Assembly (NCBI GenBank): GCA_965204725.1
Contig: OZ242005.1
Location: 4,064,001-4,128,000 of the forward strand
Origin: Candidatus Latescibacterota bacterium
GTDB taxonomy: Bacteria; Latescibacterota; UBA2968; UBA8231
Length of the DNA stretch: 64,000 nucleotides
Reading direction: 5' to 3'
Shown here: one piece after another, positions 4,634 through 52,684 of the stretch
Numbering within the stretch: position 1 is the first letter of the stretch
Layout: every line of letters starts with the position of its first letter
The notes under the pieces: generated by a model
The model's input: the letters and a program-made list of their open reading frames with translations, nothing else
The model's database searches: none
What the model was told of the DNA's origin: nothing
Translations under genes and position numbers: made by a program

Positions 4634-7222
4634 TTAATAGGCCACGACTAGGGTGCGGACCAACTCTTCCCGACCTAGCTCCGCACCCGACGTATTGGCG
4701 TCCAGCCGCAGATGAATTGCGTACACCCCCGGCGGCACGAGCGTTCCCTCTTCGGTCTTTCCGTTCCATCCCATTTCGTACACCCCCGAGGCAAAATCTC
4801 GCTGCTCGGCCAGTTGGCGCACCCAGCGTCCCGCCAAATCGTAGATGGTTGCTTCAACCCGCTGACTGCCTTCCACCAACACCACTGAAAAGCGCAACGC
4901 CACCTCGTCGTTGACCCCATCCCCATTCGGCGTCAACACCGCTGGCTCGATCACTAAATCCGCAAAAACCGAGCGCTGTTGCGGCTGCCCCACCACCAAC
5001 AGCCGATTGCGGCCGACGGCCTCCACCGCTTCCCCGCGATCGACGCGCTGCCAGATCCCCTCCCCATCTTCTCCTTGGCGCAGTTGCACCTTTAGCGGCC
5101 CCCCCCGGGAAAACAGACGCCCCGCAAAGTCTATCCGCAGCACCGCTACTTCGCTCTCCGGCCCCAACCGGGCGAAGGACAAATGCACTCGGTCGGCGGT
5201 AGCGGCCAGCACGGCCGCGGCCAACGGAGAAAAATGCTCCCCATCCGCGCTCCCCAACAACTCGTTATACGTCAGTTCCATGCCCGCCGGTGCTTCTAAC
5301 AACAACTCGTTGAACCCCCCATCCCCGGCGTCAAACTCAGGCCGCACATACACTGAAAAAGGCACCTCGGCCCCCAACCGATCCACCTGACTGGGCACGA
5401 CCTCGCCCAAGAGCCGCCGCGCCACCGGCTCGGCGAAGTGTAGCCGCAGCCCCGACAAACTCGCCGCTACATCCGGTGCGGCCGAGCGCAACGTCGCCCG
5501 CACCTTGAGAAACTCCCGCGGCGACGGCGAAGTGATCGGACTGCCTCCCGGATCGCTGTAGGGCGCACTCCACGGCTCCCAGTCTGCGCCAGCGACTTCC
5601 TCGGACACCACCTCGCCGCGAAAAATGCTCAACAGCTTGTTGTAAGCCGTTTCGGAGATTTCGGTTCCATCCTTTTTGAAGTAGTGCAAGATCTCGCCCA
5701 AGGTGTCGCCGGTGCGGGTCTGAAGCTGTACCTCGGTGCCGGGCGGCGTGTGAGCGTCCCACTCAAGGGCTACCAAGTTGCGGCTGCCCCCCAACCGGAT
5801 CAGGTCCGATTCGAGCTGCACCTCGGGCAAAAACCCCTCGCCAAAAAGTTGTATCTCGCTCAACCGGCTAGCACTCCGGTTGGGAAGGCGCACGTGTTCT
5901 ACTTCAAATACCAAGCGAAAAAAACGCCCCTTTACCGGGTCGAAGTCATTGCCATCCACGTTGAGGGCACCGGCGACGCTCCGCTTTACTTGCTCGCGCC
6001 GCATGGCCGTAGTCCACTTGAGGCCCCCATCTACTTCCCGCGAACCATCCGAAAACTCCAAGCGATAGTTCCCCAAGGCGTACTCCGTGAAACTCATGCG
6101 GTGGCTGTGGATCCAAAAGAACGAGCCTAAGTCGATGAACAACTCGTCCTCTAACCGATTCTCAATGTTGAATAGGGACAGCCCCTCTACGCTGGTCACG
6201 TCGCCGTCAATCATCAACTGGGGATTGATGCTCCCGGGCACCGTAGTAGAAATGGAGCCATTGCGCCGCAGGGCACCACTGGCCAAGTCGTCGCCTTGGG
6301 TCCACACTTCGAGCTCGGCCAACCGGGGCCGCTCGCGCCGAAAGTAGCGCACCGTCCCCTGCCGCTGGGGATCGAGAGCCTCGTACACGGCCCGTTTGAC
6401 CACGATCTCCCGCCCGTCCGCTTGCCGCTTGCTGTATTCGACGATTCCTCGGTCTTCAGCGGGCAGCTGGTCGTATTCCGCTGGGGATACTTCTCGGCCG
6501 CGACCAAAATCGCTGGCTTGGACGACAACTTGGACCAAGCGTCCCACGGCCCGGCGTTGGTCGAGCCCTATCGGGTCGAGCTCGACCTCAAAGGTGCGCT
6601 GGCTTTTGTTGGGCTTTAGCGTCTGGAGCACCGGAAAGAATTCGAGGCTCGACCCGCCAATGGCCTGTACAGGCTTCTGTCCATCCGACACTAGGACATC
6701 AAACAAGAGAAAGGGATCGCCCATGCCCTCCGCGACGAACTTTAACGCGATTTTGTTGATAAAGACAACGCGGCCCAAATCCACAGTAAACCACCACTGA
6801 GACGACAGATCTACATTCTCAGCAACCGGATCAGGCTCCCAGTACGTGGTCAAGTCGCCATCTAGGACTGCGACGACTCCGGCGCGGTTGGACCCGCCCT
6901 GAATGGCGTCGAGGAGAGCGATGTCTTCAGGCTCTTTCTTGGAGAGGTAATCTGGCGGGTTATAGCGCAGAAAATCAACGATATCCAGCGCGGCATTGGT
7001 GTTTTTGCGGACGCGATTGGGCCGCACCGCACCGAGCGAGGAAACCTCGATAGTACCGGGCGCAAATTCCCAGTGTTGCCAATGGTCGGGACCGACGACG
7101 ACTTGGTTCGCACGGCGGTCGAGCCGATGGCCTGCTTGAGCCAGCAAATCCTCGGCCCCATTGGACCAAAGCACTGCGCTGGCCACCACGAGACGCGAGA
7201 GGAGTTTCGGGCGGATATTCAT
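4634..7222 (-). CDS. Large secreted protein with discoidin/F5-8-like modules and a C-terminal FlgD-Ig/CTD-type domain
   Basis: Signal peptide from ATG 7222 (MNIRPKLLSRLVVASAVL); DGDLTTYW and VDLG motifs; C-terminal TPNGDGVND...IYDLAGR.VR...WNGK...VPPGVY. Confidence 0.7.
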   Translation of the reverse strand: MNIRPKLLSRLVVASAVLWSNGAEDLLAQAGHRLDRRANQVVVGPDHWQHWEFAPGTIEVSSLGAVRPNRVRKNTNAALDIVDFLRYNPPDYLSKKEPEDIALLDAIQGGSNRAGVVAVLDGDLTTYWEPDPVAENVDLSSQWWFTVDLGRVVFINKIALKFVAEGMGDPFLLFDVLVSDGQKPVQAIGGSSLEFFPVLQTLKPNKSQRTFEVELDPIGLDQRRAVGRLVQVVVQASDFGRGREVSPAEYDQLPAEDRGIVEYSKRQADGREIVVKRAVYEALDPQRQGTVRYFRRERPRLAELEVWTQGDDLASGALRRNGSISTTVPGSINPQLMIDGDVTSVEGLSLFNIENRLEDELFIDLGSFFWIHSHRMSFTEYALGNYRLEFSDGSREVDGGLKWTTAMRREQVKRSVAGALNVDGNDFDPVKGRFFRLVFEVEHVRLPNRSASRLSEIQLFGEGFLPEVQLESDLIRLGGSRNLVALEWDAHTPPGTEVQLQTRTGDTLGEILHYFKKDGTEISETAYNKLLSIFRGEVVSEEVAGADWEPWSAPYSDPGGSPITSPSPREFLKVRATLRSAAPDVAASLSGLRLHFAEPVARRLLGEVVPSQVDRLGAEVPFSVYVRPEFDAGDGGFNELLLEAPAGMELTYNELLGSADGEHFSPLAAAVLAATADRVHLSFARLGPESEVAVLRIDFAGRLFSRGGPLKVQLRQGEDGEGIWQRVDRGEAVEAVGRNRLLVVGQPQQRSVFADLVIEPAVLTPNGDGVNDEVALRFSVVLVEGSQRVEATIYDLAGRWVRQLAEQRDFASGVYEMGWNGKTEEGTLVPPGVYAIHLRLDANTSGAELGREELVRTLVVAY

Positions 7223-7310
7223 CGGCGGCACCTTGCGGGGGAATCTAACGCCCCTTTGGCCGAGGAACAACATTTGCCTATCCTTACGGCAACTTTGAGA
7301 AAGGGACGCT

Positions 7311-8678
7311 ATGCGACTGAATTGGCGCGAAATCGACCGGTGGATTTTTGGCGAGGCTTGGACCGGCTCGCAAATCAACGAGCACGTGGAGATGTTGTGC
7401 GAGCAAATTGGGCCGCGCTGGGCTTCTTCAGCCGAGGAGCACCAAGCGGTAAAATACCTGCGGGAGCAGTTTGCACAGGCGGGACTCGCCGATGCGGCAC
7501 TGGAGGAGTTTGCGCTGGATACTTGGGCGTACAACCGGGCCGAGGCCACGGTGGGGGATGCAAAAATTGACCTCTTGCCCTACAATCGCTGTCCACCATG
7601 CGACCTCCAAGCCCCAATCGTCCATGCAGGCTATGGTACGGAGCACGAAATCGACCGAGTGCGCGGCCAACTCAAAGGGAGTATCGCCGTAATGTACCTC
7701 GCGCTGGAGCCTTTTACCGCGCCTTCTCCACCCAACGTGCGGCTCGAAGCACTAGGCGACGCGGGCGCGCTGGCGGTGATCGCGATTGATCCAAAAGACG
7801 GGCGGCGCGTGGAGTACCACAACGGCGGCGATTGGCGCGAGCCGGAGACCGCCGAGTTGACCCTGCCCACGGTGACGACCTCGCGGGAACACGGAGCCTT
7901 GTTGCAAAAGTGGGCCAACGAGGACCGGCAACTCAAGCTGGCCGTCGAGAGCCGGTTTTACCAAGCATCCGCGCACAATGTGGTCGCCTCGATTCCCGGG
8001 ACGCGCTGGCCTCGGGAGCGGCTGGTGTTGGGCGGGCATCACGACACGGTGTACGACGCCCCGGGGGGCAACGACAACGCCTCGGGGACCATTGCGGTGC
8101 TGGAGACGGCGCGCGTATTGGCCGGGCTACAATCGGCGCTCGGGGTCGAGCCGGGGATGAGCCTGTGCTTTGCGACGTATAGCGCCGAGGAGCAGACCTT
8201 CCAAGGGTCGAGCGAATACGTGCGGCAACACTGCGCCGAAAAGCCGCGGCTGGCGATTAACCTCGACGAGTTATCGACCGGGCCGATCAAGGGGGTGGTG
8301 CTGGGGTTTGGGCATTTGCGCGGCTTGGTACAGGCTCAGCTCGATGCGATGGGCGATGGGCTGAAGTGCCACGTAATGTCCCAACTCGACGCGACTTCAG
8401 ACCATTTCCCCTTTTTGCGCGCCGGCATTGACGCGGCGCATTTGTGGCGCTGGCGCTTTAGCGGCCGCCATGCCGATTCCAACTACCACCACGAGCCAGC
8501 CGACACCGCCGACAAGCTCAATGTGCGAGAATTAAAAGAATACGTCGGGCAGCTAGCGCGCTTGTTGTTGCGGCTGTCGCACGTGGCACCCGAGGAGTGG
8601 CCGGAGAATCCGGTGACCGAGGAGGCCGTAGCCGAGCGGCTTGCGGCCGAGCGGGGGACTGTGGTGCGGGTGTATTAG
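7311..8678 (+). CDS. M28 family Zn peptidase with PA domain
   Basis: GGHHDT, GGNDNASG, AEEQ, SDHFPF and YHH..DT motifs. Confidence 0.9.
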   Translation: MRLNWREIDRWIFGEAWTGSQINEHVEMLCEQIGPRWASSAEEHQAVKYLREQFAQAGLADAALEEFALDTWAYNRAEATVGDAKIDLLPYNRCPPCDLQAPIVHAGYGTEHEIDRVRGQLKGSIAVMYLALEPFTAPSPPNVRLEALGDAGALAVIAIDPKDGRRVEYHNGGDWREPETAELTLPTVTTSREHGALLQKWANEDRQLKLAVESRFYQASAHNVVASIPGTRWPRERLVLGGHHDTVYDAPGGNDNASGTIAVLETARVLAGLQSALGVEPGMSLCFATYSAEEQTFQGSSEYVRQHCAEKPRLAINLDELSTGPIKGVVLGFGHLRGLVQAQLDAMGDGLKCHVMSQLDATSDHFPFLRAGIDAAHLWRWRFSGRHADSNYHHEPADTADKLNVRELKEYVGQLARLLLRLSHVAPEEWPENPVTEEAVAERLAAERGTVVRVY

Positions 8679-8780
8679 AAGCGGTCTGAAAATTCCCCTT
8701 GGGCCGTGTTGAACAAGCCGTAGAGACGGTCTGCGTCCTTCCCTCGCAAGAACGTCACCCCGTGCCCCGACACGGGGCGG
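8676..8780 (+). repeat. Left arm of MITE family A plus nested REP hairpin
   Basis: TAGAAGCGGTCTGAAAA...GTTGAACAAGCCGTAGAGAC matches the reverse complement of about 12465-12517. Confidence 0.7.
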
Positions 8781-8875
8781 CAACCCATGAAAGCGTCCTG
8801 CCCCAACACCTGAAATGTTCTTGCGCGGGCAGGACGGCTTAAACGGGTTCGGATAGAACGCTATTACGCGGCGTC

Positions 8876-9154
8876 CTACTCGGCTTGGTCTAACAGGCGC
8901 CTAAAGGCGTCAAGACTGGGCACCTGTATGGCCGCCCGATGCAACTGCTTGAGACGCTGCACATCGTCGGTGGCCCCAATGCGGGCGGCCAACGGGTCCG
9001 ACGCAGCCAGCCCAAAGCGAATCTCTAGCACCTCAAGCAGACCTTCCGTGGCGAGTTCTCGGCCCCCTCGCTCAATGCCCTGCTCAATGCCCTGCTTAAT
9101 CCCCTGTTCAATGCCCTTTTCCGTGAAATACTGCACTACCGACGATTCGTACAT
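8876..9154 (-). CDS. Putative intragenic RpnS small protein (92 aa), in frame within rpn
   Basis: GAGGAGGAGACC-ATG Shine-Dalgarno and start at 9154, just before the GIEQ repeats. Confidence 0.55.
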   Translation of the reverse strand: MYESSVVQYFTEKGIEQGIKQGIEQGIERGGRELATEGLLEVLEIRFGLAASDPLAARIGATDDVQRLKQLHRAAIQVPSLDAFRRLLDQAE

Positions 9155-9787
9155 GGTCTCCTCCTCAATGATGGTCATAATCGTCTCTAAGTTATATACC
9201 AACCCACTTAACATCGCAAGATCGGCCAGATAGTTCGCCTTGCGTCTCTCGTCCATCGGCACCTGTTGCGCTCGGTTGACACACTGGCGCAACCACCCCT
9301 CGGCATCGACGCCCACGGGCGGCTGCATCAACGGCGCAAACGGCAGCAAGCCCGAAGGTCCGGCGGCGAGAATGCGTTGGCCGTCTATCTCGATTAGCCG
9401 GATGACCTTGTATTGGACTAAGACGCGGTAGCCGGGACGCTCTTGGACGTAGTAACCCGGGTCATTTCGGCCAGCGTCTGGACGGAGATAGATGACGTTG
9501 GAATAGATCGGCCGGCGATGTTGCTCGATGCCGCGTCCGATGTAGCCGGCCATGCGGAGGGGCATGGGGGGGTTGCTGTCGGTGGTTTGGAACTCGTGGT
9601 GGATCAATGCCTTCTGGTCGCCAATTTTGACGCGAATGAGGCTGTCGGTGCGATGAGTTTCGACAGTGGTTTGCTCGGTATCGACGACGCCGAGGACTTG
9701 GATGTCGTCTTGTTGGAGGGCGAAGCGGGCGAAGTCTGCCGGGTAAGTGTGGATGAGGTGTTTGGCGATGGTGTCGAATTCGGCCAT
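8876..9787 (-). CDS. Rpn/YhgA-like PD-(D/E)XK recombination-promoting nuclease (putative transposase family)
   Basis: RTDSL...HHEFQT...MPLRM..Y catalytic pattern; GIEQ repeats; short helical C-terminal domain; ATG 9787. Confidence 0.85.
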   Translation of the reverse strand: MAEFDTIAKHLIHTYPADFARFALQQDDIQVLGVVDTEQTTVETHRTDSLIRVKIGDQKALIHHEFQTTDSNPPMPLRMAGYIGRGIEQHRRPIYSNVIYLRPDAGRNDPGYYVQERPGYRVLVQYKVIRLIEIDGQRILAAGPSGLLPFAPLMQPPVGVDAEGWLRQCVNRAQQVPMDERRKANYLADLAMLSGLVYNLETIMTIIEEETMYESSVVQYFTEKGIEQGIKQGIEQGIERGGRELATEGLLEVLEIRFGLAASDPLAARIGATDDVQRLKQLHRAAIQVPSLDAFRRLLDQAE

Positions 9788-39996: not shown

Positions 39997-40419
39997 ATGA
40001 CCCCTGAAACATCTGAGATCACCACCCGCGACGTATTACAGCAGATCAACCGCCGCTTGGAGTTGATTGAAAGCGATGTGCGAGCCGTCAGCGAGAAGCA
40101 GGATGCGTCGGTTCAGACGCTGCACTATAAGAATGCCGCGTCCGTGCAGACGCTTCGAGAGGAAAATACCGTGTCCCATCGGAGCCTGCACGAGAAAATC
40201 GACACGTCCTTTCAGCTCCTCCGAGAGGAAAGGGCCGCGTCCTATCGGAGCCTGCACGAGAAAATCGACGCGGTAGAGCGCAATATGCTCAACAAGTACG
40301 ACGCGACTATGCGCGACTTACACGACAAGCTCGATACCTATTTCCGCTGGACCATCGGCATCGTCCTAGCTAGCTGGCTATCCACCATGGGCGCGATCCT
40401 GTTCAAAGGATTCCTGTAG
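39997..40419 (+). CDS. Repeat-containing coiled-coil protein with C-terminal TM anchor
   Basis: AAGGAG SD; ASVQTL and RSLHEKID repeats; YFRWTIGIVLASWL TM. Confidence 0.7.
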   Translation: MTPETSEITTRDVLQQINRRLELIESDVRAVSEKQDASVQTLHYKNAASVQTLREENTVSHRSLHEKIDTSFQLLREERAASYRSLHEKIDAVERNMLNKYDATMRDLHDKLDTYFRWTIGIVLASWLSTMGAILFKGFL

Positions 40420-45447: not shown

Positions 45448-45470
45448 GCACATCCCACAGGAGAAATCCC

Positions 45471-46271
45471 ATGCTCAGCAGCGAACAATACCAGCACTTT
45501 CAGACCTTTGGCTTCGTCGTCCTGCGCCCGTTTTTCACCGCTGACGAGGTGGCCACCTTGAGCGCGGAGTTTGAAAAGGGCCTCGACCTCGCTTATGCAC
45601 ACCGCCCCTTCGACAGCTCTGAGCGCCATTGGGTGCCGCAAATGGGGCCGAGCACGCCCTTGTACGCCAGCTTGCTAGAGGACGAGCGCTTCTTGGTCAA
45701 TTACCGCGCAGCTCTACGGCGCGGATGCCTTTGCCGTGGGCGTAGATGCCAACCGCTACATCGGCGACACCCGCTGGCACCCCGATCACCGCGTCGATCC
45801 CACCGAAGACTGCTACGGGATCAAGTTTGCCTTCTATCTCGATGCGGTCGGCCCGGATACGGGTGCCCTGCGCCTCGTGCCCGGCTCGCACAAAAACCCG
45901 CTGCACGATGACCTGCGGGCATACATTCAAGGGCAGGGCTTGGAGTTGGCAGACATCCCCTCGTGTGCGCCTACCCCTCCGAGCCGGGCGACGTCGTCGC
46001 CTTTGACGTGCGCTGCTGGCACGCCAGCTTTGGCGGGCGACGGGGACGCCGCATGAGTACCTGCGTGTACTACAAAAACCCCGAGACCCCAGCGCAAGAA
46101 CGAGCCGCCCGCCAACGCGCCCAAAAAAGCCATCAAGCACCCGCGCAATACCACCGCCCCGGCGACCCGCTCATCCACCCCCATTGGATCGCCAATCACT
46201 CGGGCAGCCCCTTGCGCCAACGCTGGATTGAGCGGTTGGACGCCCTCGGATTCCTGCATTCGGCGGCCTGA
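45471..46271 (+). pseudogene. PhyH family dioxygenase broken by two frameshifts (about 45696 and 45965)
   Basis: Three consecutive segments: QHFQTFGFVVLR / WHPD...GALRLVPGSH / EPGDVVAFD...WHAS. Confidence 0.75.
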
Positions 46272-46434
46272 GCCTCGGGTTCGTAGGCGAAGCTAAACCA
46301 TTGTCGAATATCAACCTTACAGGTCACAGAAGTGTCGTCAACTTCAGCAAGCCGGTCACGGCAGTCGTCTTCCTCTGCCTCTGGCCCCGCTACGACCGAT
46401 CGAGGGTTCGGGGAGGTGGCCCTACAGATCGTCT

Positions 46435-47796
46435 CTACACTGCTCCTTCAATACCTTCATTGAAGTCGGACGTGGATTGAACCGTTGCACCCTCGCTTAC
46501 CGCATCCACATACGCCGCATCTATTGAAGTTACCCCTTCTTGGGCAGCACGACTGACCACCGAAGCCGCTGTAGTCAACAGAATGCGAGGATGTTGTCTA
46601 TTCTTCAATAGGGCCGCCACCCCTTCTTCAGTGAAGGGCTTAATGGTGCCACGGTCTCCGGGATTGTCCCGATAGTAGTCAAGGTGGGCAACTATGATCT
46701 CTCTGGCTTGGTCCGTACTTGGAAGCGGAAGTTCCACTGAATTGGGATCGCTAGGATCCAATCGGGCAACTCCTGCCAGCCCCGCTTCCCCCCAAGCTGC
46801 AGACAAGCCTACCGAGGCCTGTTGGTGGGTAGTCAGTACGCAAGAAAAAAAGTTGTGTGCTGTGTTTGCATATCCTGGGCGAACAGTGCATAGGGCGAAT
46901 TCCTTTGCGAACTCCACGCGATGTCTACGCGCCATTTGGTCGACAAGGTTCTCTATGTCATCAATAAAGAGATATCCTCCGGCAAAACCAGCGGATTTCA
47001 AGTAGAGGACTATGTCATTGAAAAGAAAATCGCGTGAGAGATCCAATAGCTTTGTGTCACGGGGAACATAGAACGGTTCGAGACTGTTGTCCTTTCTAAA
47101 GGACTTCAGATAGTCTTCAAACCCGCCTATGGCAAGAGCTGATGCTGATTCGGGTCGTATTCCTTCTGTAGTTAGCTGGTTCGTAACCTTTAGGTTCAGT
47201 TCCACAGCGTCTATCCCGTTGGCGTGCAATATGTCGTCAGCCAACAGATTAGCGAGATCTCGGGTTCCGTCTGGTTTTTTCTCAACCTGTTGAACTTCTT
47301 GGTCTGTCAGATGCTGCATTCGTAGAGCAGCCTGCGATGCTTTCAGTACGCCGCTTTTACACACATCGACCAATGCCGACAAAGCCAATTGCTCCATAAA
47401 GCGCCGGTCTACTTGGGAAGGAAAAGACACGTAAACCACCAGCGCAGAAAATTGTCCATCGAATTCCGTCCACCCCCAGTCTTGGTTGATACGCTGCCGA
47501 AAGTAACGGAGCAACGCAGTCTTTCCCATGCCTCGGCTCGACTCCGTGTCTCCCTTGGACCAAAGATAGGCAAGCCGAACTCTATTTTGGAAATCGTTGG
47601 GACGAATCAAAAGCTGCTCAAATTTTTCGATGCTTGGGCGCACCGGTCCCTCAGCATAAATGGTCCCATTACGCCGAGGGTCAGTATTATATGGGTCAGA
47701 GATAGCTACATTAGGAAATGGCAAGTCTTTCAGACCAAGTTTTTTGTAGGGAGAAGTCGTTTGTTGCAGGCCTTTCTTAGGTACTCTCAGCATCAT
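46435..47796 (-). CDS. P-loop NTPase, AAA+-like
   Basis: Walker A G.....RGMGKT; Walker B YLFIDDIE; LGL..LPF N-terminus; PFTEEGV...HPRILL lid; TAATG coupling. Confidence 0.8.
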   Translation of the reverse strand: MMLRVPKKGLQQTTSPYKKLGLKDLPFPNVAISDPYNTDPRRNGTIYAEGPVRPSIEKFEQLLIRPNDFQNRVRLAYLWSKGDTESSRGMGKTALLRYFRQRINQDWGWTEFDGQFSALVVYVSFPSQVDRRFMEQLALSALVDVCKSGVLKASQAALRMQHLTDQEVQQVEKKPDGTRDLANLLADDILHANGIDAVELNLKVTNQLTTEGIRPESASALAIGGFEDYLKSFRKDNSLEPFYVPRDTKLLDLSRDFLFNDIVLYLKSAGFAGGYLFIDDIENLVDQMARRHRVEFAKEFALCTVRPGYANTAHNFFSCVLTTHQQASVGLSAAWGEAGLAGVARLDPSDPNSVELPLPSTDQAREIIVAHLDYYRDNPGDRGTIKPFTEEGVAALLKNRQHPRILLTTAASVVSRAAQEGVTSIDAAYVDAVSEGATVQSTSDFNEGIEGAV

Positions 47797-48887
47797 TATG
47801 CCTTCCTGATAAGGTTATAGATCTGGGTGGAACCCCGGTCACGCACCAATGGCTTTCGCCGACCGGTGATACCCTCGTATTGTAGGCCGACCGTTAAGGG
47901 GCGAGGGTCCAAGTCAAGGATATGGTTGAGGCCCTCGTCGAACGCCGCTTCTGGTATCTTCAAATATTCGCTGACCCTATCCCGGACCTCAGATAAGTCA
48001 TAGTACCCGGCGATCGGAGTCAAGCTCTCAAACACCTCGTAAATGGCCTTAAGGAGTTTGTCGAGTACTTTAAGATCAGCTATGTCCGGTTCGCAGAAAT
48101 AGATGTTAAAGGATTCGTCCGAGTTAAGACGAATATCTAGCGGGACATGCCAATTATTCGGAGGAAAATTCACCATACAGGGAGTATATGTCTTTAAGAA
48201 CTCACAACCTTCTTGGTTATGCTTCATTTGGTTTAATAATCGGAGACTTACCAACCGATCACACATCGCTCTGAACATGGGAACGCCTATACGCATTTCG
48301 GGAACCGCCTTTAGCAGAATACGATGACGTAAGGCATCCTCCATTTTCTTAGGGTTACTACCATTCAGTGTCGATAATACTTGGTCGGCCTGCTTAGCTG
48401 CTTCTTCACCAAATGTAGGAACAAGTAAACCAGTGATGTAATCCCTGTTATCAAATCTGTCCGCATTTACTACTGGACGCCAAATAGCCTCCAATTCTAA
48501 GTGCTTCTTAACTACCAACCGGAGATTATCATAAGTCCGCAAATGCTCCGTAGCCATAACACGCCGCAGTTTTTGGAATTGACGATTATCAAGAAGGGAT
48601 AAAACTGCCCTGCCCTTATCCGTCAGTTCATACGCCCCTCTCTTGACGGACTTGGCGAGTTGGAGATGTACCAATTCAGGGCAAATTTTTTCACCCACGG
48701 TCTCAAATGTACCCCTCGGCTCCGGCAACATTAGCCGCAAAGCTTTGTCACTGACATATTTGCGGACGCTCTTAGCAATTGTGTCTGTCTGCTCCTCTCG
48801 GCGAGCACTAGAAGGCAAACCTGCCAATACGCGCAGTCCGATATAGTGATAGCCAACGTCGGTTACGTTGTAGCTAGTTATATTCAC
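47796..48887 (-). CDS. Hypothetical protein, possible winged-helix domains
   Basis: GGAGG plus GTG start overlapping the upstream stop (GTGA); ELVHLQLA......YELTDKG resembles a wHTH wing. Confidence 0.65.
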   Translation of the reverse strand: MNITSYNVTDVGYHYIGLRVLAGLPSSARREEQTDTIAKSVRKYVSDKALRLMLPEPRGTFETVGEKICPELVHLQLAKSVKRGAYELTDKGRAVLSLLDNRQFQKLRRVMATEHLRTYDNLRLVVKKHLELEAIWRPVVNADRFDNRDYITGLLVPTFGEEAAKQADQVLSTLNGSNPKKMEDALRHRILLKAVPEMRIGVPMFRAMCDRLVSLRLLNQMKHNQEGCEFLKTYTPCMVNFPPNNWHVPLDIRLNSDESFNIYFCEPDIADLKVLDKLLKAIYEVFESLTPIAGYYDLSEVRDRVSEYLKIPEAAFDEGLNHILDLDPRPLTVGLQYEGITGRRKPLVRDRGSTQIYNLIRKA

Positions 48888-49663
48888 TGCATCGCCTCCC
48901 GGGCACTGGCTAAAAGCCAATTGCATTCCGCGTTAAGCTGCCGAAACGAATGGCTGATTACCTGAGATTCAGATTCAGCGACCACCCTCAACACAATAGT
49001 ATTTTCAGAACGATAGCCGAATCTACTGCTGATCCAATTATCCATTAACTTCAGCCATACATTGTTAAGCTCGGCACAAAAATCTTGAAACCGGTCGTGG
49101 AATTCTTCTGAAACTTGGAGACGACCCCGACGCAGTTCCACGTTAATCCTCTTTGCATTATCAACGAGTATGGGAACGGGTCTCAAACTAGGACTTACCG
49201 GGTGGATGCCAAGCCCAAGACACGCAGCCAAGCCGTTGATGTCGAACGCCGCGGTAGCCATGAATACAGGGCACAACTCCTTCAATAACAAATCCGGATT
49301 GAGGGCGAGATAGTCTAATATCTTGGCAAAGAAGACTATTACGTCGTTTTTCGCCGGAGGCCCCTGCCAGTTCTTCAGTTCCATTATAGCAGTGACATCC
49401 GGGTGTTTGGCCACGATGTCGATTTCGTGCAGAACACCGGATGCAGTAGACATCTCAGAACCGAGACGCATTTCTCGCTCCTGAGAAATCTCCCAACTAC
49501 TCAAGCTAGTAATACAACCGGTCCGAAAATTACGTTCAAATCCCTGATCGGGCAGGTTGTCACGAGCTGTGTGCTGCCATTCCTCGTTGACAAACCGATA
49601 GCAATGTTTGAGGAAGTCAACTGCTGCATTCGGCAGTTCATCTTCCACTCGGATGCTAACCAT
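48884..49663 (-). CDS. PD-(D/E)XK restriction-endonuclease-like protein
   Basis: FE...SGVLHEIDIVA......IMELKN catalytic pattern. Confidence 0.75.
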   Translation of the reverse strand: MVSIRVEDELPNAAVDFLKHCYRFVNEEWQHTARDNLPDQGFERNFRTGCITSLSSWEISQEREMRLGSEMSTASGVLHEIDIVAKHPDVTAIMELKNWQGPPAKNDVIVFFAKILDYLALNPDLLLKELCPVFMATAAFDINGLAACLGLGIHPVSPSLRPVPILVDNAKRINVELRRGRLQVSEEFHDRFQDFCAELNNVWLKLMDNWISSRFGYRSENTIVLRVVAESESQVISHSFRQLNAECNWLLASAREAMQ

Positions 49664-49793
49664 TTTTCCTCATCTCGTCGAGGTCCGTAATGCGTAGATC
49701 GTATAGCTGCTCATCCATGTCTCCTTGTATCTGAGTGTTTTTGGCTGTGCCAACTCGTGCTATGTGAAGAATGTACTTAGCTCCTACGATGTG

Positions 49794-50000
49794 TCAAGTC
49801 ATACCTTCTACATCTAACCCCACCGCCTTCCGCAACTCCTCCGGCTCCGGTACTTGGGCCGCCGCTCCAAAGCTCAGCACCTAACTCTTAATCTCATAGA
49901 ATTTCCCAGTTCGCAGCCGCTTTAGTAGCAAAAATCGCCCGTCCTCCTCCAACCACCGCCCCGCGGTCTGTTTGTAGGCCGCGCCCAATGGTTGGGCCAT
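49794..50000 (-). pseudogene. Remnant of a WYL-domain transcriptional regulator (WCX C-terminus)
   Basis: EIKS*VLSFGAAAQVPEPEELRKAV matches the WCX consensus W.LSFG....V.EP.ELR, with TAG at the Trp position (49881-49883). Confidence 0.65.
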
Positions 50001-50090
50001 GTCGTGCTTCCTCTGTGGTGAAATTGCAAAAAGGGGTCCAATTGAATAGAATAAGATGTGCGCTTTTTTCCCCTCACCAAGGAGCTTCTC

Positions 50091-51077
50091 ATGCACGTCG
50101 GCACTCAGCAGTTTAATACATCGGACGAAGACCTCGAATATCTGGCTCGTCACGGGGTCTTCAACAAAAACGAAAATTTCATCGCGTTCCACCGCGAATA
50201 CGGTTGGGACGTCGAAGAATTGGTCGCCAAGAAGGAGAAGTGCGCTCGCTTCGGCATCGACCTAGAGATGGTCGCCTTGCCCATGGCCCAGTTCAACGTC
50301 AACGGCGGAGGCGTCCCCAACTTTATGATGGGCAACTACGAAGAGGGCGATAAGGAGATTGCGCTGGTCGTCAACATGGTGCGGCAGGCGGCCGAAGCCG
50401 GCATCCCAGCCATCAAATACTACCTCTGCGCCCTTGAAAACCAGCGCACCGAAAGTACGCCCCCCGGCCGCGGCGGGTCCATCTACAGCACTTGGGACCT
50501 CGAAAAGGCCGACGCAGATACGCCTCGCTACGACCAACCCGTCACCGCCGAGGAAAACTGGCGTCGCATCACGTACTTCTTGGAAAGGGTCATCCCGGTG
50601 GCCACCGAGTGTAAGGTTCGCATGGCCTGCCATCCCTGCGACCCTTGGCTGCCGCCCGGCTTTAAGGGCATCGATCGCGTGATGGGGGGCTTTGACGGCT
50701 TCAAGCAGTTTATCGAGATCTGCCCTAGCCCCTACCACGGCGTCAATCTCTGCTTGGGCTGCATGGCCGAAAGCGTCGAAGACCCGCTCAACGAGGTCCC
50801 CGAAATCATCCGCTACTTAGGCTCGCGCAACAAAATTTTCCTCTGCCACTTTCGCAACATCGTCGGCAAGCGCAACAAGTTCCAAGAGGTCTGGCCCGAC
50901 GAGGGGGTGATGAACATGCACCGCAACATGCAGGCCCTCAAAGAAGTGGGCTACCAGCACATGTGCGTCCCGGATCACGCGCCCGGGCACAAAGACCCCC
51001 ATAGTATGCGCCAAGCCTTCGCCTACGAGTTCGGCTACATCCAAGCCATGATCCAAGCGGTGATGGACGAGAATTGA
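50091..51077 (+). CDS. uxuA: Mannonate dehydratase (UxuA) family protein
   Basis: YFLERVIPVA....VRMACHP.DP, HFRN and PDH.P motifs. Confidence 0.8.
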   Translation: MHVGTQQFNTSDEDLEYLARHGVFNKNENFIAFHREYGWDVEELVAKKEKCARFGIDLEMVALPMAQFNVNGGGVPNFMMGNYEEGDKEIALVVNMVRQAAEAGIPAIKYYLCALENQRTESTPPGRGGSIYSTWDLEKADADTPRYDQPVTAEENWRRITYFLERVIPVATECKVRMACHPCDPWLPPGFKGIDRVMGGFDGFKQFIEICPSPYHGVNLCLGCMAESVEDPLNEVPEIIRYLGSRNKIFLCHFRNIVGKRNKFQEVWPDEGVMNMHRNMQALKEVGYQHMCVPDHAPGHKDPHSMRQAFAYEFGYIQAMIQAVMDEN

Positions 51078-52684
51078 GCGAGCGCACCACCTACAGTCTC
51101 CACACATTCCGCAACGACGCTTTCGGCGGCCTCACGGCCGCGGTCGTGCTGCTGCCGAAAGCGTTGGCCTTTGGCGTGGCGTCCGGCATGGGGCCGCTAG
51201 CCGGTCTTTACAGTGCGATCGCGGTTTGCTTCTTCGCGACGATGTTCGGCGGGACGCCGGCGCAGATATCCGGCCCCACCGGCCCGATGACCGTGGCCAT
51301 GGTAGTCATCGTGGCTGGGTATGCCGACAGCCTCGCCGAAGCTCTTACGATCGTCATGCTCGGCGGCCTCTTGCAGATCGCGCTGGGCGCCCTGCGAATC
51401 GGCAGCTATGTGGAGTACACCCCGTACTCGGTAATCTCCGGGTTCCGCTCGGGTATTGGCGTCATCATCATACTGCTGCAAGTGCTGGCCATTTTCGGGA
51501 CCAAAACCCCTCCGGGCGGCCTAGTGGAGGCGATCCTCGCTTGGCCGGCCGCAATGGTCAACGCCGACGCGATCCTCTGTGTGCTGCTGACCCTAACCGT
51601 GGCCTTTTGCTGGCCCCACCGGCTACGCAAACTGTGCCCGCCGACGCTGGCGGCCCTAGCGGTGGGCACTCTAATCAGCCTAGCGTGGCTGGACGACGTC
51701 CCCGTGCTCGGCCCGATGCCGGCGGGCCTGCCGAGCCTGAACTGGCCGGTGCTGTCCCCCTCTTTCCTGCTCGGCGTCCTCGAACCGGCCTTTATTATCG
51801 CGCTGATAGGCTCCATCGACAGCCTGCTGACCTCGCTGGTGGCCGATTCGATCACGCGGACGAGCCACAAACCCAACCGCGAGCTGGTCGGGCAAGGGGT
51901 CGGCAATGTCATGGCAGGTCTCTTGGGCGGGCTGCCGGGGTCGGGGACGACTTCTTGTACGGTGGTAAATGTGCGGGCGGGTGGGCGGACGCGGGTGTCT
52001 GGCACGTTGTGCGCTCTACTCCTGCTGGGGCTGGGGCTGGAGCTAAGTGCGCTCACCGCGCAGATTCCCCATGCCGTGCTCGCCGGCATCCTGATGAAGG
52101 TCGGTTGGGACATCATCGACTGGCGCTTCCTCAAGCGCGTCCGCCAAATCCCACGCGATCATCTGGTCGTCATGTTTCTGACGCTTGGGCTTACCGTATT
52201 CGCGGATCTGGTCACCGCCGTGGCGATTGGGCTGATCGCCGCTGGCATGGCCAGCTCGAAGCGGTCGAAGGCCCTCGAACTAGACAGCGTGGTCTCGGTG
52301 CCGTTCCTCGATCAGACGCTCACCTCCTCGCAAGTGCCAGACCCCTACTTGGCGCGCGTCGGCCTAGTCGCTCTGCGGGGCCGGTTTTCCGTTGCTTCTT
52401 CAACCGCGCTAGTGCGCGTCATCGGCGAGGACATCCGCGAGCACGAGGCCGTGATCTTCGACTTCTCCGCCACCAAGCACATCGACGACAGCGCCGCTAT
52501 GGTCATCGAACGCCTGCTCGAGACGGCCGCTGACGAGAACACGGAATGCGTGATCATGGGCTTGTCCGGCTCGGTCGCCCATACCCTCCGCGCCCTCGGC
52601 ACCCTAGACGACGTCTCCCAAGACCGCTTCGTCGAAAGCCTAGATGAAGCTAAACGCCTCGCGCTCCGGCTGCTCGATAGCTAA
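51074..52684 (+). CDS. SulP family anion transporter with STAS domain (BicA-like)
   Basis: LPKALAFG, FGGTPAQISGPTGPMTV, IDSLLT and NRELVGQG.GN motifs. Confidence 0.92.
   Translation: MSERTTYSLHTFRNDAFGGLTAAVVLLPKALAFGVASGMGPLAGLYSAIAVCFFATMFGGTPAQISGPTGPMTVAMVVIVAGYADSLAEALTIVMLGGLLQIALGALRIGSYVEYTPYSVISGFRSGIGVIIILLQVLAIFGTKTPPGGLVEAILAWPAAMVNADAILCVLLTLTVAFCWPHRLRKLCPPTLAALAVGTLISLAWLDDVPVLGPMPAGLPSLNWPVLSPSFLLGVLEPAFIIALIGSIDSLLTSLVADSITRTSHKPNRELVGQGVGNVMAGLLGGLPGSGTTSCTVVNVRAGGRTRVSGTLCALLLLGLGLELSALTAQIPHAVLAGILMKVGWDIIDWRFLKRVRQIPRDHLVVMFLTLGLTVFADLVTAVAIGLIAAGMASSKRSKALELDSVVSVPFLDQTLTSSQVPDPYLARVGLVALRGRFSVASSTALVRVIGEDIREHEAVIFDFSATKHIDDSAAMVIERLLETAADENTECVIMGLSGSVAHTLRALGTLDDVSQDRFVESLDEAKRLALRLLDS

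Follow-up and report, generated by a model that had tools for sequence, protein, structure and literature searches.

Within a 64,000-nucleotide stretch of the genome of a Candidatus Latescibacterota bacterium (GenBank assembly GCA_965204725.1, contig OZ242005.1, positions 4,064,001 to 4,128,000), hereafter the window, three open reading frames (ORFs) of the minus strand fill positions 49663-46435 and form a compact cassette in which neighbouring genes overlap. Gene 1 (48884-49663, 259 aa) is predicted to code for a nuclease subunit of the PD-(D/E)XK, or restriction-endonuclease-fold, type with a helical C-terminal extension, gene 2 (47796-48887, 363 aa, GTG start) for a putative DNA-recognition subunit with multiple winged helices, and gene 3 (46435-47796, 453 aa) for a P-loop ATPase, probably of the AAA+/ORC-Cdc6-like class. 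The overlaps can be read directly from the sequence: the GTG of gene 2 (48887-48885) interlocks with the TGA of gene 1 (48886-48884) as GTGA, and the TAA of gene 2 (47798-47796) with the ATG of gene 3 (47796-47794) as TAATG. They bear out the translationally coupled minus-strand trio proposed in an earlier reading of the window made without database searches (hereafter the sequence-only reading). A purine-rich Shine-Dalgarno-like stretch lies a few bases 5' of all three starts. An alternative ATG at 48926 would give a gene 2 ORF of 376 aa; since the homologues of gene 2 are 362-364 aa long and align from the residue of the GTG at 48887, the 363-aa version first proposed is preferred, and this GTG is most likely the start. 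About 107 nt upstream of gene 1, a consensus scan identified a promoter-like TTGACA-16-TACATT (49770-49797, minus strand), which is suggestive as a putative cassette promoter by its position alone, since such sites are no denser in the region than in its shuffles. No Rfam match was present in 45800-50400.

The cassette lies in inserted DNA. In blastn comparisons with five sister genomes (G001, G005, G007, G010 and G011), the left flank stops at 46271-46279 and the right flank restarts at 50066-50069, and a spacer of about 47 bp is found in place of the cassette; because this spacer has diverged, the right limit of the insert is uncertain by about 45 bp. Together with the G + C (GC) profile, these comparisons delimit an insert of about 3.8 kb (46280-50066). 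The GC content is 0.43-0.53 over 46500-49999, against 0.61-0.64 in the left flank and 0.60-0.67 in the right one. The sequence-only reading had described AT-richer DNA inserted among metabolic genes, and both points hold, the empty site in the five sister genomes confirming the insertion. The genes flanking the insert code for a topoisomerase, a 3-methyladenine glycosylase, a PhyH-like protein, a UxuA-like TIM-barrel protein and a SulP transporter. As that reading had also stated, no methyltransferase is encoded in the insert, and a classical restriction-modification system was rejected on this ground.

A metagenome-assembled genome of the Latescibacterota (G146, locus L010) harbors the cassette at the same site as in the window; the two cassettes are 95.9% identical and their flanks 92.2-92.3%. 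Between them, the ratio of nonsynonymous to synonymous substitution rates (dN/dS) amounts to 0.16 in gene 2 and 0.22 in gene 3, so that purifying selection has acted on the proteins since the sister species diverged. In the gene 3 copy of L010 (L010 8001-9362), a GAA-to-TAA change at codon 199 interrupts the ATPase. A second, independent insertion was identified in a Chthoniobacter genome (L014), where 4.57 kb at 4895-9465, comprising the cassette and an upstream 247-aa ORF of no Pfam family, replace about 69 bp present in three relatives, as seen from the aligned junctions. A repeat search of 46150-50250 returned short two-copy matches of the chance kind only, with no convincing terminal inverted repeats or target duplication, and no transposase domain, DDE or other, was found in the insert from the ORF list and Pfam. 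Nucleotide homology to the copies from other phyla ends at the gene ends, with no conserved non-coding ends. The cassette is evidently horizontally acquired.

The product of gene 1 was modelled with AlphaFold2 (AF2) at a predicted local distance difference test (pLDDT) score of 89.9. The best VIA-align match of this model is AF1548 (Z 8.5, root-mean-square deviation [rmsd] 2.3, 108 aligned residues), followed by the small subunit of R.BspD6I (2p14; Z 8.1, 145 aligned), by NucS and the nuclease domain of Nt.BspD6I (2ewf), both at Z 7.3, and at lower scores by Card1, Can2 and Cdn1, then by the FokI cleavage domain (Z 5.6) and McrC (Z 5.1). The eleven best rows (Z 8.5 to 5.8) are all restriction-fold nucleases, and Foldseek returned the same fold set at an E value of 3e-3, with a probability of 0.99 for 2p14 and 1y88. 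This outcome of the structural check suggested by the sequence-only reading agrees with the nuclease core EIDIVA...IMELK that it had recognised: in 32 aligned homologues E80, E95 and K97 are invariant, as is an upstream E64, and D82 is conserved in at least 90%. By sequence, the nearest Pfam lead was NERD (PF08378; 13 bits, below the cut-off of 22.1, E 0.15), and a profile search of the Protein Data Bank (PDB) gave nothing meaningful. Residues ~160-259 form a mostly helical extension that matches helical bundles; no ASCH domain was found by Pfam in the window's gene 1 or in two distant versions. Gene 1 is, on its model and conserved residues, a restriction-endonuclease-fold protein, with the alpha-beta-beta-beta-alpha-beta core of that fold and an intact E...D...ExK site, and a predicted nuclease.

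The AF2 model of gene 2 has a pLDDT of 92.6, and FokI (2fok) is its best VIA-align match (Z 8.6, rmsd 5.0, 194 aligned residues, model 1-256 against FokI 8-291). It is followed by BrxA (Z 7.6, 164 aligned), Nt.BspD6I (2ewf; Z 7.2, 192 aligned), PaqCI (Z 6.9, 188 aligned) and SspB (Z 6.6, 180 aligned), and all of the long matches (159-194 aligned residues: FokI, BrxA, Nt.BspD6I, PaqCI, 3bhw and SspB) are DNA readers of restriction or defence systems. FokI was also ranked first by Foldseek (E 7e-3). Residues 1-265 resemble the FokI recognition domain, and residues 270-363 form a further winged helix that matches ORC/Cdc6/Cdt1-type winged helices (Z 6.2-7.7). The feature comparison of the Atlas, based on a language model, leads likewise to the FokI D1-D3, DpdG and BpuJI_N clusters (0.79-0.82, with 0.82 for FokI D1-D3). 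At the sequence level, residues 32-110 match Mrr_N (PF14338) with 24.2 bits, below the cut-off of 29.5 (E 3.7e-5), which is a winged-helix lead only. The window's gene 2 had no Pfam, NCBIfam or PADLOC match at E<=1 to the models of FokI_D1, FokI_dom_2, FokI_D3, DUF4007 (SspB), DptG or BrxA, and 35 members of its family had none at E<=0.1 to the PADLOC models of SspB/BrxA-type readers. No catalytic-looking motif is conserved in the gene 2 alignment. The family is narrow: 1.84 billion representatives yield 75 clusters at 50% identity, of which only a handful are full-length and distant. Gene 2 models confidently as a multi-winged-helix DNA reader similar to those of FokI, BspD6I, PaqCI, SspB and BrxA, the likeness being at the fold level only. 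The sequence-only reading had placed it in no recognised family and noted segments resembling winged helix-turn-helix (wHTH) domains; no profile cut-off is indeed reached, and its fold makes it recognisable as a multi-winged-helix reader. With such a reader in the middle, the system resembles a type-IIS-style nuclease in split form, to which an ATPase has been added. A complex prediction of genes 1 and 2 gave a score of 0.00, which is no answer and speaks neither for nor against binding.

Gene 3 shows the motifs of a P-loop ATPase. In 19 homologues G82, D83, R88, G89, G91, K92 and T93 of the P-loop are invariant, and so are D279, D280, I281 and E282, the Walker B motif IDDIE of the sequence-only reading; when relatives of 36-41% identity are added, K92 and T93 are kept in at least 90% and D279, D280 and E282 are still invariant. 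Down to this identity the conserved blocks are R-G-x-G-K-T, Y-L-F-x-D-D-I-E-N, V-L-T-T-H and several arginines, the V-L-T-T-H block being a putative sensor-1 and the arginines putative arginine fingers. The loop reads S-[GS]-R-G-M-G-K-T, so that its first glycine is shifted by one position from the canonical GxxxxGK[ST]; the Walker A motif reported earlier "with an insertion" is conserved, and the insertion is a matter of description. All Pfam matches lie below their cut-offs: AAA_16 with 22.5 bits against 32.6 (E 1.8e-4), AAA_22 with 15.6 against 27 (E 0.021) and ORC-CDC6-like with 11.1 against 27 (E 0.16). The nearest feature neighbours in the Atlas are BrxC_BrxD/AAA_22 clusters (0.96-0.97), and one of 15 family members matched the PADLOC BrxD model (E 0.03). 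An identification as BrxD was nevertheless rejected as unsupported, because gene 3 had no match at E<=1 to BrxC_BrxD (PF10923) in a profile search of its own genome and an hhalign comparison with 11 PF10923 proteins from its phylum returned a probability of 5.9%. Sequence and profile searches of the PDB gave nothing meaningful. From its motifs and these leads, gene 3 is probably a P-loop ATPase of the AAA+/ORC-Cdc6-like class.

Each of the three proteins has 480-502 relatives at E<=0.001 in a collection clustered at 90%, and all the named ones are "hypothetical". Close to the window the distribution is patchy: no copy of the gene 3 ATPase was detected in 40 relatives, of which 24 belong to the same genus, and it occurs in two of the 168 genomes of the phylum, the window's own and G146. 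A scan taking one genome per species yielded 62 loci which, by record titles, come from about ten phyla, mostly Chloroflexota (mainly Dehalococcoidia), together with Verrucomicrobiota, Planctomycetota, Acidobacteriota, Binatota, Entotheonella, Pseudomonadota, Latescibacterota, a Thermodesulfobacteriota fragment and a Bathyarchaeia archaeon. As the sequence-only reading had proposed to check, the three-gene order is kept among the homologues: 55 of the 62 loci harbor the three genes in the same order and on the same strand. The seven exceptions comprise four loci that reach or approach the end of their contig (L015, L024, L066 and L071), one that is truncated (L029) and two that are distant (L069 and L070); in the last two the middle gene is invisible to tblastn and the three-ORF layout is nonetheless kept (249, 399 and 390 aa in L069). 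These two distant versions, of 36-41% identity, come from a Bathyarchaeia and a Chloroflexi genome. All three genes are full-length and free of stops in 43 of the 62 loci; L017 and L033 look decayed, and gene 3 is found in two high-scoring segment pairs (HSPs) in L055, L058 and L068. Identity to the window is 44-58% in most loci, for gene 1 and gene 2 alike. The cassette is widespread in Chloroflexota and in sponge- and soil-associated bacteria.

In a quick maximum-likelihood tree of 55 ATPases, 37 of them from Chloroflexota, the window and L010 fall inside a Dehalococcoidia clade with a Shimodaira-Hasegawa-like approximate likelihood ratio test (SH-aLRT) value of 99; the tree has no real root, so that the direction of transfer is only inferred. 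The window's own genome carries one copy of the cassette, and one per genome is present in most cases; one Dehalococcoidia chromosome (L044 and L065) carries two divergent whole cassettes, with gene 3 59% and 56% identical to that of the window. A sponge metagenome contig spans the cassette region completely, with 49 differences over 3.9 kb. In addition, metatranscriptome contigs from three libraries of one study cover all three genes with an identity of about 92%, one of them across 46705-49076. By their sequence these contigs represent a third, related carrier; they are at most a weak hint of transcription, which they cannot show, DNA carry-over being possible.

The ORFs within about 6 kb of the cassette were clustered for 60 loci, and no recurrent partner or fourth gene emerged. 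The commonest neighbours code for SDR, luciferase-like and ABC-ATPase proteins, GatC/GatA/AspRS and acyl-CoA dehydrogenase. Two candidates for a fourth gene were rejected: the small ORF downstream of the cassette in several Dehalococcoidia loci is GatC, and the ORF upstream of it in three loci is a PIN toxin. Among the nearest 150 ORFs of the 60 loci are three DDE transposases, three PIN domains, two resolvases and two RepB, as well as pieces of type I and type IIG restriction-modification systems, AbiEii, Old and PD-T4-6. Two Eco57I-type methylase domains and one match to a type I methyltransferase model were also found among these 150 ORFs, and no methyltransferase is consistently linked to the cassette. 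In individual cases, the neighbours are RepB/ParB-like genes together with a large serine recombinase (L020), an OLD-family ATPase immediately upstream of the cassette (L040) or a type IIG restriction-modification gene (L011). The varied contexts and the lack of a recurrent partner suggest that the cassette is a self-contained unit landing in many contexts. The sequence-only reading had proposed to look for the homologues in defence islands, and this was not borne out: most neighbourhoods are metabolic, and only some loci lie near restriction-modification, OLD, AbiEii, PIN or transposase/recombinase genes. Searches for a vector were negative, with no match for gene 3 by tblastn against 72,556 plasmid and 50,697 phage records, none in a scan of IMG/VR, and none in PHROGs for any of the three proteins.

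Several smaller features surround the genes at the locus. An upstream ORF of 20 codons (49718-49656, minus strand) has a good Shine-Dalgarno site, and its stop codon TAG runs into the ATG of gene 1; L010 retains this ORF, the copies of other phyla lack it, and a 171-nt insert at 49683/49684 breaks it in the strain of the metatranscriptome contigs. The upstream part of the insert (49881-50020, minus strand) has a higher GC content and two short ORFs (39 and about 28 codons) for which no relatives were detected; they may be remnants of donor genes. L010 lacks 88 bp of this part (49846-49933). On the other side, the segment just 3' of the gene 3 stop (46280-46434) differs among three close strains, which all converge at the stop codon: 155 bp in the window, about 147 unrelated bp in L010, and in the metatranscriptome contigs 30 nt matching the ancestral empty-site spacer. 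The ancestral spacer also weakly resembles an AAATTGC-containing stretch at the insert's right end (near 50015-50035), a similarity indistinguishable from chance. In the flanks, the PhyH-like dioxygenase gene beside the insert (45470-46271, plus strand) is split over three frames by shifts near 45692 and 45978; the sister genome G001 has it as a single ORF and L010 lacks it, and the split gene is either a pseudogene or an assembly error. The SulP/STAS transporter gene (51074-52684, plus strand) is present in L010 and replaced by about 60-75 bp in G005, G007, G010 and G011, and the GC content there is not low. Finally, ~40090-40280 aligns at 72-79% identity with several adjoining places in L010 (14465-15331), a pattern suggestive of a tandem repeat in that genome.

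Compared with known systems, none of the three proteins reached a Pfam or NCBIfam cut-off, and the window's proteins matched no family of PADLOC-DB v2.0 (2023) at E<=1; 35 and 15 family members gave scattered single weak matches. Our literature search found no named or tested system of this composition, with the proviso that the family may sit in the supplements of PMC10853773 or PMC12839542. The nearest published account is a single in-silico sentence by Krishnan, Burroughs, Iyer and Aravind (NAR 2024; PMC10853773) on operons of Orc/Cdc6, a restriction endonuclease (REase)-ASCH protein and a triple-wHTH protein of the DndG-like kind; its examples are in supplements, and the comparison is by description only. 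As worded there, that set fills the same three roles as the cassette, with an ORC/Cdc6-type P-loop ATPase, a nuclease of the restriction fold and, as a protein of its own, a multi-winged-helix reader akin to DndG, SspB and FokI, and it likewise forms one mobile operon, unnamed and without experimental test (PMC10853773). In that sentence the nuclease is fused to ASCH, whereas gene 1 of the cassette has a helical C-terminal extension and no ASCH beta-barrel. The claim of the sequence-only reading that the system is undescribed and matches no named one thus stands with respect to PADLOC-DB v2.0 and has to be qualified by this similar operon set.

R.BspD6I and FokI share with the cassette a FokI-type multi-winged-helix recognition module and a PD-(D/E)XK cleavage domain, which in BspD6I is also a separate small protein. 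However, there is no relation at the sequence level (no match to Pfam FokI_D1, FokI_dom_2 or FokI_D3), and, unlike in these enzymes, gene 2 has no catalytic domain of its own, a cognate methyltransferase is lacking and an ATPase is obligatorily linked. The pairing of a FokI/SspB/BrxA-type reader with an ORC/Cdc6-type ATPase has been described for Ssp (SspB-SspC) and BREX (BrxA-BrxC/BrxD) in the parts of the literature considered here (PMC10853773; PMC12839542). The cassette resembles them in the fold of gene 2 (Z 7.6 to BrxA, 6.6 to SspB) and, for BREX, in the nearest named Atlas clusters of gene 3 (BrxC_BrxD), whereas it harbors no SspA/SspD, PglX, PglZ or BrxL, has a dedicated nuclease as effector, and matches no PADLOC Ssp or Brx model with the window's proteins. 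McrBC and other nucleoside triphosphate (NTP)-dependent Type IV systems also combine an NTPase with a PD-(D/E)XK nuclease subunit and no methyltransferase, and McrC is among the fold matches of gene 1 (Z 5.1). In contrast, McrB, an AAA+ protein specific for GTP, carries a DNA-binding domain itself, whereas the reader of the cassette is a separate protein, and gene 3 showed no likeness to McrB in any search.

The explanation that we favour, with moderate confidence, sees the cassette as a restriction-like nuclease system of three subunits, self-contained and horizontally mobile, that likely acts in defence against phages or other incoming DNA. The sequence-only reading had spoken of an ATPase-gated nuclease, with modification-dependent restriction or abortive infection as its candidate modes; the tight operon of nuclease, middle gene and P-loop protein is supported, as is its horizontal acquisition, the recasting of gene 2 as a reader makes the system look split and type-IIS-like, and the defence role and both modes stay putative. 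Gene 2 would find a DNA feature, the ATPase would assemble on or move along that DNA, with ATP binding or hydrolysis as the licence, and gene 1 would then be recruited, probably as a dimer via its helical tail, and cut. The target would be a conserved mark of foreign DNA, either modified bases in the manner of Type IV systems or an unusual DNA state. Such a mark is likelier than a variable sequence guarded by methylation, because no modification enzyme is linked to the cassette and the reader is about as conserved as the nuclease. The cassette is thus modelled as probably a split type-IIS-like nuclease, gated by an ATPase, that reads modified or otherwise foreign DNA. A more speculative proposal, which we hold as possible but rather doubtful, is that it represents a new modification-free class of restriction, a minimal relative of the BREX/Ssp sensing core wired to a detachable type-IIS-style cleavage subunit; self and foreign DNA would then be told apart by ATP-dependent reading of a conserved DNA mark and not by host methylation.

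Several observations weigh against a defence system of this kind. Most neighbours in the 60 loci are housekeeping or metabolic genes, and no vector is known, given the lack of matches in plasmid and phage records and IMG/VR. The conservation across phyla is unusually high for defence genes (44-96% for genes 1 and 2, 53-96% for gene 3, leaving out L069 and L070), and the gene 2 family is very narrow. The fold matches score only modestly (Z 8.1-8.6, Foldseek E ~3e-3 to 7e-3), near the tool's range for models without clear matches, and the class of gene 3 comes from sub-threshold matches, with PF10923 absent and an hhalign probability of 5.9%. The function, defence included, is inferred from sequence and models.

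The mobility of the cassette could also be explained if it were mainly selfish, a restriction-like "addiction" or homing module that spreads by cutting DNA and being copied or kept, with little benefit to the host. A bare cassette without integrase, found in intergenic spacers after two independent events, would fit such a module, as would the end of homology to other-phylum copies at the gene ends, the decayed copies (the TAA in gene 3 of L010, truncated or split genes in L017, L029 and L033, and gene 3 in two HSPs in L055, L058 and L068) and the difference among three close strains in the sequence 3' of the gene 3 stop. However, a genome mostly holds one copy, no terminal repeats or target duplication stood out, and the dN/dS values of 0.16-0.22 indicate proteins that are maintained. 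We regard a mainly selfish role as unlikely, and for restriction systems selfishness and defence are compatible with each other.

The same composition recalls Tn7, in which TnsA is a restriction-fold nuclease and TnsC an AAA+ ATPase. The cassette, mobile between phyla, combines a PD-(D/E)XK nuclease, an AAA+-like ATPase and a DNA-binding protein, so that it could be a transposon-like core with analogues of TnsA and TnsC and gene 2 as target selector. ATPases of the ORC/Cdc6 clade do serve transposases, according to the portion of PMC10853773 that concerns them. A Tn7-like core (TnsA/TnsB/TnsC) was nonetheless rejected, since the insert has no DDE or other transposase, no convincing inverted terminal repeats or target-site duplication and no conserved non-coding ends, and the window's genome holds a single copy; we consider this reading very improbable. 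Hardly any more credit can be given to a cellular module of DNA repair, recombination or regulation, made of a NucS/AF1548-like nuclease with a loader or of an Orc1/Cdc6 damage switch. AF1548 and NucS are indeed among the top fold matches of gene 1, and a three-gene switch centred on Orc1/Cdc6 is known from archaeal proviruses such as SNJ2 (PMC10123103). The patchy spread (2 of 168 genomes in the phylum), low GC and recent insertion speak against a cellular module. As its description goes, the SNJ2 module lacks a nuclease and is always found in proviruses (PMC10123103), whereas the cassette has no viral matches in the phage records, IMG/VR or PHROGs, and an identity with this switch was set aside for lack of a nuclease and for its bond to proviruses.

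Under the favoured reading of a mobile restriction-like defence system, what would stand as new is an unnamed three-gene family, its kind, NTPase-assisted restriction-like defence, being a known one. If protection against phages is true, the cassette would be a compact three-gene addition to the defence catalogue. Current defence catalogues have been built mostly on cultured Proteobacteria and Firmicutes, and the lineages that carry the cassette (Dehalococcoidia, Latescibacterota, Binatia and Entotheonella) are hardly sampled by them. The pair of a reader and an ORC-like ATPase is still poorly understood in BREX and Ssp; with reader, cutter and ATP switch as three small proteins, the cassette would offer a tractable model of DNA sensing by a FokI/BrxA/SspB-type reader and an ORC-like ATPase, and a separable reader-nuclease pair may be of interest for enzyme engineers. 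If the modification-free reading is true, the cassette would be a missing link between the type IIS enzymes and BREX/Ssp.

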